The notes under the pieces were generated by a model, which was not told the origin of the DNA, made no database searches, and saw only the letters and a list, made by a program, of their open reading frames with translations. This document shows, piece by piece, positions 12,285-63,675 of a DNA stretch of 64,000 nt (the stretch's first letter is position 1; every line of letters starts with the position of its first letter). The DNA comes from Octopus vulgaris (taxonomy: Eukaryota), in contig OX597839.1 in assembly GCA_951406725.2 (NCBI GenBank), forward strand, positions 12,648,001 through 12,712,000. The letters are read 5' to 3'. The position numbers were made by a program, and so were the translations under genes.

Positions 12285-12319
12285 GTTTCTGACGAAGAAC
12301 TCCGCTCGAAACGTTAAAC
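12285..12319 (+). ncRNA. Minimal type-I hammerhead ribozyme motif (family a; host repeat ~12222-12400)
   Basis: GTTT-CTGACGA-A-GAAC tcc GCTC-GAAAC-GTT-AAAC: stem I GTTT/AAAC, canonical core, stem II with one mismatch, palindromic stem III AACGTT, GUU site. Confidence 0.7.
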
Positions 12320-13219
12320 CCTCCTTCTTTCCTGAGCGACCAATAATTCTATACTTGTTCCACGTCCTCGCGTTGTTGTGTTTTCATGTTTGGATTAACT
12401 ATGTATGTATGTATGTATGTATGTATGTATGTATGTATGTATGTATGTATGTATGTATGTATGTATGTGTGTATATATATATATATATATATATATATAT
12501 ATATAGAATTAACTATGTATGTATATATATATATATATATATATATATATATATATATATAATCTCATCCCATCTTCTTCGCCCACTTAATCCTGAGACG
12601 GTCATGAAGGTAGAATCTTCAAGCACATTTTCCATAAGCAATCGTCTTCAACTGACGTGTCTGGATCCCCAAGCGAGACCAATGGAACTCATGGATGTTA
12701 TCCAACCATCTTGCTCGTAGTTTACCCCCTTGGTCTTCTGCCAGTTGTTTTTTGCCCTTAAAACCTGTCTAGCGATTCTTACCTGCGTACGTTCCTCCGT
12801 TGTAGTTTGAAAGCAGACCGATTCATCAGAACACTTTGTTGCAGACATACTATAGTGTGTGTGTGTGTGTGTGTGTGTGTGTGTGTGTGTGTGTGTGTGT
12901 GTGTGTGTGTGTGTGTGTGTGTGCAAGGTATTTACTCTTCGTCGTTAAATTAATATGTTAAGTTATATCTCTAACTTGACCTTAGAAACATAATCAACTA
13001 AGGAATATTCTTAACAAAACCAGGATTTCCCTCCCCAGCTGCCTAATAGATTTGAATAATTCCCTCTCTGCAATAATTTTTGAATCAGCGAATGTCCTAC
13101 TGAAATTAGGGGGAATGAGAGTTGTTATGCTGCTTGGAAAACAGTAAAAGGACTCCGTGCCAAAATATGTTTGGGAATCTCACTCATCTTAAATTCGTAT
13201 AGCTCTCTATTGCTAATTA

Positions 13220-13320
13220 TATATGTCTGTAATTAAGTACATATGTTTTTCTATATGTGTCTGTAATTAAGTATCTATGTTTTTCTATATATCTCTGTAA
13301 TTAAGTATATATGCTTTTCT
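13220..13320. repeat. ~33-bp minisatellite, 3 units
   Basis: tctgtaattaagta..tatgtttttctata repeated. Confidence 0.8.
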
Positions 13321-13865
13321 CCAACCTCCTCTACCTCACTACACTTAACTTTATCCCTTATGTTCTCTTGTTTCCACAAAATAACTTCTGTCTGGTATCA
13401 CGTACGTTATTTACTTTTCTTCATTACGGCTATCCATTATCCAGTTGCAGTAATTGATCTTATGACCAAGAAAATATTTACGAGCACTTTTTCGTACAAC
13501 AAAACTTAATCAGTTGACTTTGTAAAACATGGACCTACATCTACAACTTTCACAACACATTATGCACACCTAACTTTTTTAACTTTTACTGTGGCAATTG
13601 CAATGGTAATAGTTTTTAACTTGTATTCACCAACACGTTTGCGTAAAATTTGCATCCATTAGTGTTATCAGTCAAGTTTAACATTCAAGATCGGAAGTGG
13701 TCCATTTTCTTGTTTATGTAGGAATTACAAAGAGAATGAAATACAATTCATTATATTATATACACAGAATGTGAGTAATGATACAGAAAACCGATAATTA
13801 GACTATTCAAATAACGAAGACAAAAATATGCATTTGTTGGTATTAAAACTAAATATATAATGATA

Positions 13866-15579
13866 CAGCGATACCTCGCAGTAGAGTTTAATTCGTTCCT
13901 TGACCGAGCTCGTTTTACGAGTTACTCGTTTTACAAATAAATTTTACCCAATGAAATTAATTAAAATATAATTAATTTGTTCCAACCCAGAAAACCACCC
14001 CAAAATAATTTTTTATGGGTTTTGAAACAGAAACGGTGCAGTTACAAGGAAAATAACAATTATAAAAGCATACTAAAAGAGAATGCAAAACAAATATGTA
14101 AACTGGTTTATTAATTTAATTACCTTAAAGATGGAGCGGTAAGGAGTATGATTATTATTTGGAAGGAGAATCTCCTATTAAGACTTCAAGAAGGACAATT
14201 TCTGGAATTTTCTTTCTCATTTCGCTTAATTTAGGCTTTTTGGACACATTTACTTCACTTTTCAAACTTGCAGGCCGTTTCGTTAGAAACATCAAAAAAC
14301 GTCTACTTTTCCCTGCCTTTCAAAATGTTACGAAAATGTGCCAGAGCAGTATCATTAAATAAAGCAGCTGTACGACCTGAAGATACTTTTTCAGGATGAT
14401 TTTTTTTCTACAAATTCCGAAACATACTGCCTCTTTGCCAACACTGCCCTTATGTCACTCGTAGAGATAGCCTTCTCCGCTACACTGTCCTCCTCCGAGG
14501 AACCGATCTCTTCCACCGTATCCGAATGCTACTGCCCCTGAAACTGCAGGATTTCATCTGTCGTCAGGTCCTCTCAGTGTTCTTCGATGGGATCGCTCCC
14601 ATCGTCAACCTCGAGGCCCATGAAGTTGCCAAGAGACACTACCTCTTCGACTATAGGTGTCATAGATTCAAATCCCTCGAAGTCTCTTTCGGATATGCAG
14701 CCAGGCCACAGTTTCCTTCACGCAGAAGGAATTCAGCATTCTCCTCGTTACACCCTGCCAGGCTATATCGATGATTTTCAGGCAGTTAACAATGATGTAA
14801 TGCTCCTTCAAAGCACCGACGAAACAGGTGTTTGGTATACAAGTTCTTAAAGTTAGAAATCACCTGTTGGTCCATAGGCTGCAAGATGTAGGTTGTGTTG
14901 CATGTAAGGTAAAGAACTTTTATGAATTTAAATTCGTCCAGGATATCATCTTCGAAGTTAGGAGGGTGAGCAGAAGCATTGTCGAGGATGAGAAGAGCCT
15001 TGAACAGAAGATCGTTCTCCAGAAGGTACTTTTTCACTACTGGTCCGAAGATAAGTTTGACTCGCTTATTGAAGAATTGCCTGGCAACCCAGGCTTTAAC
15101 GTTTGCCCTCCACATGATCTGCAGCTATGAAAACCAGTCCTCTTCTTAAAATTATCTAACCAGCTGCGACTGGCCTTAAATATGTCTGCTGATGTCTCCT
15201 CCGTCGATGTTCCAGGGTTCTGTTTCAGGAGATCCCCATACAGCGCTCGTGCTTTCTCGTAGATGATGGTCTCTGTAATCGTATCCCCTGCGAGTTGCTT
15301 CTCGTTGATCTACAGGAGAAGCAATTTTTCCATCTCTTCGTGGACATATGTACGTTGATGGGAGAGCCTGGAGACACACTTTGCTGTTATAACAACCTTG
15401 ATCTCGTCCTTTTTCTTCAGGACGGTGTAGATCATCGACGTGCTTCGGTCGTATCAACGTGCTATGTCCACTACACACACACCTCTCTCATATTCATCAA
15501 TAACTTCCTTCTTCAATTCTAACGTAATCAGCTTTTTCTTTTCAACGCTGTCCTTTGCACTAACCTTCTTAGGAGACAT
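13866..15579 (-). mobile_element. Decayed pogo/Tigger-type DNA transposon
   Basis: N-terminus MSPKKVSAKDSVEKKKLITLELKKEVI (CENP-B-type HTH) from ATG 15579. DDE segment WRANVKAWV...ALLILDNASAHP...TTYILQPMDQQVISNFK at 14786-15115. TA plus TIR cagcgatacctcg at 13864. Stops, frameshifts and an internal deletion. Confidence 0.9.
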
Positions 15580-61541: not shown

Positions 61542-62063
61542 GATATGAATAATACTGCAATAATATTAAATATTATAAGGAATAATTAGAAGTGTGTATA
61601 CAGTGCCATGATAGGTAAAGAAAGGTTCTATACATAGCAGCAGTAAAAATTTTTTTTAATTCCTACATATATTATATATATATATTGTAATCAATGTAGT
61701 ATGTAGTAAGAACAAATTACTCAATAGGCACTTGCAGTCTTGTAGAGCATTATATATATACATATATATATATATATATTGCCTGTAGTTACTTCAACAC
61801 CATGGTTTCAAGGTTTGTCTTTTGCTTGAGAAACTACAATGGAAGTCTGAAAACAGCTTTCTCTAAATTCCAGGATACAAGTATGTAGATATGATATGAC
61901 AGGAATTAAAGGTACTACATATATGTATGTATCTATTATGCAATATATGAAATATGATATATATATATTTGCATGCAGCATGAAAGAGCATGAGAAGAGA
62001 TAGAAACAAATAAAAAAAGAAAAACAAATGGGAAAATATGTCTCATCCAAGACATCTTGTTGT

Positions 62064-62417
62064 CTATTCTGATTCACGCTGTGATACAACGCTGGCATCA
62101 TAAGGTCTTTCTTGGCCATTGTTGATGAAACCTCCAACCATGCCTTGAGCCAAATTAAAGAGGTTGATTGGAGTGCTTCCATCTGTAATCAATGTAGACT
62201 TGATACCAAGAGATTGGAGCAGTTTCATCTGGCTCTCCTGTCCAGACACGGCAATTGCTCTCAGAGTTTCAGTACCAAGACTCTCGATCATACGCTCAAA
62301 CATCTTTATTTGAATATCACCCATCTCGGTGGTCTTGTTAACCTCGAGTGAATTCTTCTCAGCAATGTACTTCAGTTCTGCATTGCGGGCTTGAGTGATT
62401 TGGGCCAGTTTTGCCTC
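62064..62417 (-). CDS. MVP: Major vault protein, terminal coding exon (cap helix / C-terminus)
   Basis: Translation [17 protein letters not shown]...[53 protein letters not shown] matches the conserved MVP C-terminal signature ([23 protein letters not shown]). Phase-0 acceptor ttttccttaaAG at 62418-62419; stop at 62064-62066. No upstream exon recognised in the window. Confidence 0.95.
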   Translation of the reverse strand, partial: [117 protein letters not shown]

Positions 62418-63164
62418 CTTTAAGGAAAAAATAATATAAAACAATGAATATCATATACCATACTTAAATTGATTTTATAAGAAATTTAGGTTAAGAGTTC
62501 AACTCCATCAAAGACATTATGAACATACAAAAAGCTCCCTCTTCTAACAGATATAATAAAAAATCCCTTTGACCCCTTAACTGTGAAATGAAATTTCATG
62601 GTTATTCCAGTAATGATATCAAATATCTACCTGAAAATAGAATTGGTGTTTTCTGAAAATCACATTTCCCTCAATAAACTTGAGATATCATCATCATTTA
62701 ACGTCCATCTCCCATGCTGGCATGGGTTGGACAGTTTGACAGGAACCAGCCAGACAGAAGACTGCGCCAGACTTTTGTGTGTGTTTTGGCATGGTTTTTA
62801 CAGCTGGATGCCCTTCCTAACACCAACCACCCTGTAAAGTAGACTGAGTGCTTTTTACATGGCACCAGCACAGACAAGGTCAGTTCTGGCATGGTTTTTA
62901 CAGCTGGATGCCCTTTCAAATATCAACCACTTTACAGTGTGGACTGGATGCCTTTTATGTAGCAGACAAGGAATTTTTGAGAGGAGAGGTGGGGCATTGG
63001 AGGCGGTGACCTTGTGTCAGATGATGAAAGGTTTGAGTTTGACAGAAACAGGTGTCTTGCTATACATGGTTACCCAGAGAGAGAAAGAGAAAAAAAGAGC
63101 GAGAAGAAGAAAATAGAAAATTACAATTTTTAAATCTCAAATGAGATATTCAGCAACAGTACTT

Positions 63165-63675
63165 TGTAGTAAAGATTGTTTGCCAATATAACATGGCAGT
63201 CCTAGCTTAGAACTAATCTTGCTATAATTTAGCCCCAGGAGACATCGTCTCCAGCTGGCTATATGACACAATCTGTGTCCTTATATTTTCGAACAAGGGG
63301 ATCTAGTAATTACTATTTGAAAATAGTAATTTTCTAATTTATAAATCAGTGACTAGTTGTCACTTTGAAAACTATATATTTCGAATGGGAATTAGCCGAT
63401 TTATAAATCAGTGACCAGTTGTCACTTTGAAAACTATATATTTCAAACAGGAATTAGCCAAACAATTATTCTGTGCTGATGAAGGGAAATAACCCAGGAA
63501 TTGTGATACACAAATATTGTTTTGAGCTGAGTGGGGGTACTAGATTACCTTGTTAAAAAAAATAAGGACACAGATTGTGTCGTATAGCCAGATGATGTCT
63601 CCTGGAGCTAAATTACAGCAACATTAGTCCTAAACCAGGACTGCCATGTTATGTTGGCAAACAATCTTTACTACA
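63165..63675. repeat. Fold-back element (~120-bp inverted arms, ~275-bp spacer) in the MVP intron
   Basis: Arms 63165-63284 and 63562-63675 are reverse complements. The spacer holds a ~62-bp tandem duplication and a hammerhead motif. Confidence 0.88.
63472..63512 (+). ncRNA. Hammerhead motif (family f) in the MVP intron, antisense to MVP
   Basis: TGTG-CTGATGA-A-GGG aaataa CCC-A-GGA-ATTGTGAT-A-CACA: stem I TGTG/CACA, perfect CUGAUGA, GAAA changed to GGAA, stem III consistent with a CpG-decayed ATCGCGAT palindrome. Confidence 0.62.

Follow-up and report, generated by a model that had tools for sequence, protein, structure and literature searches.

The question raised by this locus is to which kind of mobile element a set of short hammerhead-like motifs belongs, and whether these motifs all carry a core that can cut. 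The locus is a stretch of 64,000 bases of Octopus vulgaris DNA (assembly GCA_951406725.2, contig OX597839.1, positions 12,648,001 to 12,712,000; hereafter the window), with 37.8% GC and plentiful microsatellites and dispersed repeats. Judged from their sequence, the motifs are probably minimal type-I hammerhead ribozymes from the pseudo-long terminal repeats (pLTRs) of Penelope-like elements (PLEs), representing about five lineages in this genome. One family, named B below, has U instead of A at core position 6 (U6) throughout the family.

Hammerhead motifs in the window

Both strands were searched with a descriptor consisting of stem I of at least 4 Watson-Crick bp, C[TC]G[AT]NGA, stem II, GAAA, a palindromic stem III, and UH. 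This descriptor was taken from an initial annotation of the window, which had named eight sites and a mirror of the 17926 site (nine copies), and it was fitted post hoc to these sites. We found seven matches (C3 at 12289+, 17935+, 17902-, 25945+, 27843+, 38826+, and 59342-), compared with none in each of 100 locally dinucleotide-shuffled windows; a strict descriptor, requiring CUGANGA, gave three matches, again with none in 100 shuffles. As a set, the motifs thus exceed the chance expectation, in line with the initial annotation. The claim that all named copies share the hammerhead order is true for seven of the nine with the relaxed core (three of nine with the strict core), but not for 54515, whose stem I is only 2 bp long, nor for 63472, where the second core box is GGAA instead of GAAA. 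A loose descriptor gave 0.53 matches per shuffled window (30 shuffles), a rate sufficient to account for the 63476+ site, which satisfies this descriptor alone, and for two additional candidates, 28200- and 9485+. The copies, with the repeat pieces in which they lie, are as follows.

12285..12319, plus strand: minimal hammerhead of family A, copy 1; canonical core, A.C mismatch in stem II
12221-12400 (~180 nt): family A piece, copy 1, placed within a (TATG)n tract
59312..59346, minus strand: minimal hammerhead of family A, copy 2; C4
59222-59403: family A piece, copy 2; both ends match those of copy 1
25940..25977, plus strand: minimal hammerhead of family B, copy 1; U6 at 25948, N7 at 25949, H17 at 25972
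27839..27874, plus strand: minimal hammerhead of family B, copy 2; U6, in a piece (27781-27964) flanked by (TA)n tracts
17931..17968, plus strand: minimal hammerhead of family C; canonical core, stem II of 2 bp flanked by single unpaired A residues
17869..17906 (arm 17831-17913), minus strand: family C in inverted orientation; 79 of 83 letters agree with those of the main arm
38822..38873, plus strand: hammerhead of family D; C4, 8-bp stem II with wobbles, 6-nt palindromic stem III
54433..54600, arms on both strands: inverted pair of family E; plus arm from 54515 with a canonical core, decayed minus arm from 54513
63472..63512, plus strand: family F candidate; GGAA for GAAA, wobble palindrome
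63165..63308, minus strand: inverted copy of 63538-63675 (144 nt), a stretch downstream of the family F candidate

Within the window, the canonical A6 is found in the copies of every family other than B. Most copies have some defect, namely a stem II mismatch (12289), C4 (59342 and 38826), or U6 (25945 and 27843), and a canonical core with unbroken stems is found only in the 17935/17902 pair, where stem II is just 2 bp long. The short stem I of 54515+ is explained by the inversion junction, which lies 1 nt upstream of C3 and thus removes the 5' strand of this stem. The family F candidate, which is antisense to the major vault protein gene and upstream of its last exon, could be a decayed motif or a chance match. 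In both C (17942-17951) and F (63483-63496), stem II is very short and has an unpaired A at either side, so that these motifs have an extra A before G12.

The families had initially been described as about six and unrelated. When the 3' flanks of A and B were aligned, with the ribozyme excluded, the alignment was beaten by only 0-1 of 500 shuffles for all four pairs; among the remaining 22 between-family pairs, an equally low value was obtained only for E-F (1/500). A and B are thus sister families, which reduces the number to five lineages. Between the A copies (12289, 59342) and the B copies (25945, 27843), stem I shows a compensatory change from G-C to C-G.

No hammerhead family was among the 150 of 177 Rfam matches listed for the window (E<=5), which were miRNA and snoRNA models on microsatellites or hairpins. 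Minimum-energy folding did not give the hammerhead fold for the monomers or the B homodimer, which we regard as neutral evidence since this is expected of minimal motifs. The candidates 28200- and 9485+ were dropped as being within chance, as was 39052+, found by eye, for being too decayed. Among weak hammerhead-like stretches, 9481-9532 (+) has a 7-bp stem II and GAAG, and 39048-39112 (+) is badly decayed, with a (TA)n tract 157 nt downstream.

Insertion anatomy and Penelope-like identity

The motifs lie in solo pieces of ~150-250 nt, which often end in (TA)n-type tracts. A TA-type microsatellite occurs at most 150 nt downstream of five of the eight named sites, compared with 10.4% of random positions (P ~5e-4), and at these five sites the tract starts 111-140 nt after C3. 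The family D piece (~160 nt) is bounded by (TA)n tracts, the main arm of C extends to (TA)n near 18068, and the piece of B copy 1 has a (TA)n end near 26066, with family sequence upstream as far as ~25783.

An inverted partial copy is found on the 5' side in three lineages, C, E, and F. In family C, the inverted copy lacks the last ~60 nt of the main arm, so that this tail is one-sided, and the element is cut 11 nt upstream of the core. In family E, the two arms (54513-54515) both stop precisely 1 nt short of the core C3, on its upstream side, as though the reverse transcriptase had changed strands on reaching the border of the ribozyme fold. In family F, the mirror consists only of sequence downstream of the motif, and its origin is ambiguous, since it could be a PLE 3' end in inverted orientation or could belong to a DNA element as a terminal repeat. 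Because these mirrors would have arisen together with the insertion, they do not count as independent examples.

Hallmarks described for PLEs include insertion into microsatellites, tails on one side only, and inverted copies that are truncated at the 5' end (PMC8557442). The window contains inverted 5'-truncated copies (C, E, and, ambiguously, F), in C with a one-sided tail, and a microsatellite insertion bias like that of Neptune and Naiad, two structural features which make it likely that the pieces are PLE sequences. There is no direct pLTR pair around a ~3-kb body in the window: the only same-strand pair, formed by the two B copies (1.9 kb apart, 81% identical), has no open reading frame (ORF) in between. 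The motifs also match the published consensus in their U-rich leader, the extra nucleotide after A9, the G10.1-C11.1 pair, and the palindromic 15.2-16.2 segment. Most minimal hammerheads are reported as single motifs of truncated PLEs, with some close pairs on opposite strands (PMC4209133), and Penelope families with recent insertions are described in Octopus vulgaris in a paper whose main text does not contain the words 'ribozyme' or 'hammerhead' (PMC13282606). The descriptor matches, the published consensus, and the family B contigs presented below all support the earlier assignment of these motifs to Penelope-type minimal type-I hammerheads in multi-copy repeats. They had also been interpreted as non-coding ribozyme retroelements in their own right, which appears less likely, as truncated PLE 3' ends fit the pieces better.

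PLE biology (PMC4209133, PMC8557442, PMC6765202) suggests how such pieces might form. A GIY-YIG nick in a TA-rich tract would prime reverse transcription at the 3' end of the element, which would lie 60-140 nt beyond the ribozyme. As synthesis would mostly halt early or change strands, what remains would be ribozyme-bearing 3' stubs, either solo or mirrored. The masters would have tandem pLTRs, whose two ribozymes would pair via the palindromic stem III and slowly cut the precursor. The window copies themselves are solo and decaying, and probably inert; they are unlikely to cut because they are solo and because a read-through transcript of C or E would form a long hairpin.

A family with U at core position 6

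The initial annotation had given A or U at position 6 as a mere degeneracy of the motif. U does occur there, but that it is the family-wide state of B had been overlooked. We examined this at the family level with contigs from public sequencing runs matched to one stretch of family B (25750-26072): run X8 (organism D, n=6324), and runs X20 (n=1218) and X10 (n=274), both from organism A. The RNA nature of X10 and X20 is a guess, and no claim of transcription is based on them. A at position 6 makes up 0.39% (X8), 0.06% (X20), and 1.04% (X10) of the depth, and C and G are each below the 5% listing limit in the three runs. The scarcity of A6 in all three runs indicates that U6 is family-wide under two organism labels. 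The family consensus proposed as a check of the motifs has thus been obtained for B, in which the fold and the greater part of the core are preserved, with U at position 6. Family B is also established as multi-copy beyond the window.

Within 25941-25976, only N7 and H17 vary by at least 5% in X8. N7 is U in 46%, A in 22%, and G in 8%, with C as the remainder, and H17 is U in 25% and otherwise A, with G not among the bases reaching 5%. In X10, a G to A change at 16.2 is additionally present at 5.4%, consistent with CpG decay. The chance of both variable positions falling on the 7 free positions among 36 is 0.03, so that variation at positions which the hammerhead leaves free gives modest support for selection on the B motif.

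Many X8 contigs diverge at the edges of the ribozyme, 207 just before 25941 and 205 just after 25980, so that the ribozyme is a block common to subfamilies whose flanks differ. The summed contig depth is maximal on the ribozyme, at 4-5 times that of its 3' flank; this depth is not usable as a copy number, and the peak is partly an effect of the assembly graph. Upstream, the X8 depth is ~23,000 at 25871-25881, falls ~6-fold into the adjacent bin (25860-25870), and is ~12,000 at 25794-25815. The dip coincides with letters private to B copy 1 of the window. Together with one X10 contig that bridges 25803-25915, the upstream depth shows that family B continues beyond the start of the shorter copies. 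No head-to-tail joints were listed on the family B stretch. A check of position 6 through spurious translations in a protein collection gave no matches, and the A and B motif patterns had 0 matches in viral, metagenome, and prokaryote collections.

What U6 would do to the ribozyme can be approached from folding and from published mutants. U6 permits U4-G5-U6 to pair with A15.1-C-G, with a predicted pair probability of 0.42-0.65, compared with 0 for A6, and this pairing would trap the core. In a full mutagenesis study, single mutants of the CUGA turn had low activity, except for the 3-8 swap (PMC9901934), and an A6C hammerhead had an observed rate constant below 0.1 per min (PMC3088659). Given these data, U6 most likely results in weak or no cleavage in Mg2+. 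Family B probably stems from masters that already had U6, and it spread widely although its cleavage in Mg2+ is most likely very slow or absent.

Weighing the possible explanations

We tentatively propose, at somewhat less than an even chance, that B is a large octopod PLE lineage in which U6 was passed on across numerous master subfamilies with no loss of the fold, the palindrome, or any other core letter, for one of two reasons included in this same estimate. Either U6 is a functional natural variant of the core, acting in dimers, with Mn2+, or together with the PLE protein, or the hammerhead structure has been retained for some non-catalytic task, for example recognition, or template switching that the PLE reverse transcriptase (RT) performs under the guidance of dimers.

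Several observations weigh against this proposal, or against the PLE origin on which it builds. The raw DNA run X22 (1934 million letters) yielded only 20 family B reads, far too few for a high-copy repeat; we found no explanation for this, and read retrieval from X22 may drop reads without notice. Five of the 20 reads carry A6, with two start places and 14 other differences, and represent one divergent locus. No close downstream microsatellite is found at three of the eight sites (59342, 54515, and 63476). Both A copies start at the same base and the start of B copy 2 has a similar offset, a pattern that points to fixed 5' ends more than to random truncation. Finally, as the initial annotation had noted, no RT or GIY-YIG ORF is visible: Pfam gave no match to either domain in 430 of the 823 stop-free frames of the window (823 of at least 40 aa; those scanned were at least 50 aa and not of low complexity). 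Such an absence is as expected of truncated stubs, but no RT or GIY-YIG sequence is linked to any family, so that the case for PLE descent is built on the form of the motifs and the anatomy of the insertions.

The most serious alternative concerns B only and, in our estimate, also falls a little short of an even prospect. U6 would have killed the founder ribozyme, and the dead motif would have been carried by masters that do not depend on cleavage, its conservation reflecting youth and not selection. The low activity of the CUGA-turn and A6C mutants is in line with this, as is the predicted trapping of the core, and high copy numbers are attained by Naiad PLEs, which lack canonical hammerheads (PMC8557442). 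What speaks against a dead motif is that the same 40 nt are retained in subfamilies with different flanks and that variation is found at N7 and H17, although the latter argument gives only the modest support noted above.

It is also possible, but unlikely, that A, B, and perhaps D are ~190-nt non-autonomous elements with fixed ends, similar to solo pLTRs or monomeric retrozymes, and mobilised by PLEs in trans, an explanation near that of the initial annotation and not fully exclusive of the PLE reading. The shared ends of the A copies are consistent with such elements, as are the start of B copy 2, 60-75 nt upstream of the core, the ~6-fold drop in X8 depth, and a report that retrozyme families are often monomers homologous to pLTRs (bioRxiv 10.64898/2026.07.22.740005). 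However, family B continues upstream of this drop, the dip matches letters private to the window copy, and C and E break off with inversions, C at 11 nt and E at 1 nt upstream of the core.

A link to retrozymes had also been suggested, but tandem non-LTR (long terminal repeat) retrozymes producing circular RNAs are a very improbable source of the motifs. The type-I topology and weak palindromic stem III are compatible with retrozymes, which coexist with PLEs in molluscs (PMC7229834). Nevertheless, none of the 62 tandem-repeat rows of the window covers a motif, the two B copies are separated by SINE-like (short interspersed nuclear element) repeats and microsatellites, the B stretch has no listed joints, and the motifs are minimal rather than of the canonical 6-bp/4-bp kind with loop contacts.

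Chance matches in AT-rich repeat DNA, which the post hoc descriptor and the rate of its loose version might allow for F, 28200-, and 9485+, are hardly credible as a general explanation and are refuted for A-E by the absence of matches in shuffled windows with both the strict and the annotation's descriptors, the compensatory stem I change between A and B, and the variation pattern of B.

Other features of the window

A segment at 62067-62408 (minus strand) encodes the C-terminal part of the major vault protein in its last coding exon; its product is 95% identical to an Octopus bimaculoides protein and 68% to one of Argonauta. A family resembling miniature inverted-repeat transposable elements (MITEs), ~410 nt long with ~25-30-nt terminal inverted repeats, has ~11 copies of 81-93% identity. 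One of them (7068-7166/9017-9361) is split by an insert of ~1.9 kb, within which lie a Pif1 fragment and a 164-nt tandem repeat. SINE-like repeats are very abundant and fall into at least three families (431-645, 1983-2367, and 709-957), each with many copies across the window.

19403-19826, 28612-29001, 31260-31681, 33792-34214, 39943-40351, 43110-43519: MITE-like copies
50736-51142, 51598-52004, 56371-56782, 21903-22240, 7068-7166 plus 9017-9361: MITE-like copies
8399-8935, plus strand: Pif1 2B domain remnant (Pfam), which we take to be Helitron-like
14786-15487, minus strand: transposon remnant with DDE_1 and HTH_Tnp_Tc5 (Pfam)
45298-45609, minus strand: DUF7083 transposon remnant (Pfam)
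39318-40029, minus strand, and 30347-31210, plus strand: LINE-like (long interspersed nuclear element) remnants, 75% identical, each interrupted by other repeats

A sub-threshold zf-RVT Pfam match lies inside the first of these LINE-like remnants (39817-40029), and by eye both are presumably the C-terminus of an element with a restriction-like endonuclease. Three segments on the minus strand (33104-33382, 43974-44267, and 48956-49273) had no Pfam match and, by eye, we take them to be CR1/RTE LINE 3' ends and an ankyrin-repeat fragment.

Significance and comparison with known systems

It is not settled what hammerheads do in animal PLEs, as their cleavage in vitro is poor (PMC4209133) and certain PLE clades flourish in their absence (PMC8557442). 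The sister families A (A6) and B (U6) provide a natural experiment on whether cutting matters to PLEs, and if B is indeed a U6 lineage with a kept fold, A is a built-in control for the role of the hammerhead. Descriptors that require CUGANGA miss family B entirely, so that genomic hammerheads may be undercounted. Unlabelled short repeats of octopus genomes can, with the help of these motifs, be assigned to PLE ends.

In the open literature, taken without Repbase, Dfam, and the O. vulgaris repeat library, we found no report of an octopus or other cephalopod PLE hammerhead. Nor did we find one of a U6 hammerhead in the same literature, outside which stands a 2017 study by Lunse, Weinberg and Breaker that, by its title, reportedly concerns PLE-associated, dimer-cleaving hammerhead variants.

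Many minimal hammerheads in an animal genome are already known, and their arrangement has been published for many animals, with the molluscs Lottia and Crassostrea among the examples (Cervera and de la Pena 2014, PMC4209133). The motifs described here resemble those of PLE pLTRs in that work in their type-I topology, 4-5-bp stem I, palindromic or absent stem III, extra nucleotide after A9, G10.1-C11.1 pair, and U-rich leader, and in the presence of many families per genome, mostly solo with occasional opposite-strand pairs. Family A closely resembles the Acropora Neptune-PLE motif (Fig. S3 of PMC4209133), and small PLE hammerheads are reviewed as cleaving as dimers (PMC6765202). There are also differences: the 56 representatives of PMC4209133 include no cephalopod and all have A6, unlike family B, although this uniformity is biased because the descriptor used there required A6. 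The core change described in that work is a compensatory U3-A8, not U6. The density of 7 per 64 kb, in one selected window, is far above the totals of 2,000-9,000 per genome given in PMC4209133, and, unlike in that paper, no linked PLE ORF was found in the frames scanned here.

Retrozymes (PMC7229834; bioRxiv 10.64898/2026.07.22.740005) are likewise non-coding repeats with type-I hammerheads related to pLTRs, but they are defined by tandem ribozyme-bearing units and circular RNA, whereas the window has no tandem array. The nearest parallel to family B is the natural hammerhead of phage Bcep176, which is also changed at core position 6 and whose A6C core has low activity in Mg2+ that is rescued by Mn2+ (PMC3088659, PMC7151607). 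The general kind of motif is already known, and the family-wide U6 core appears to be the new element: Bcep176 is one phage sequence with C6, whereas the U6 of family B characterizes a large animal repeat family under two organism labels.

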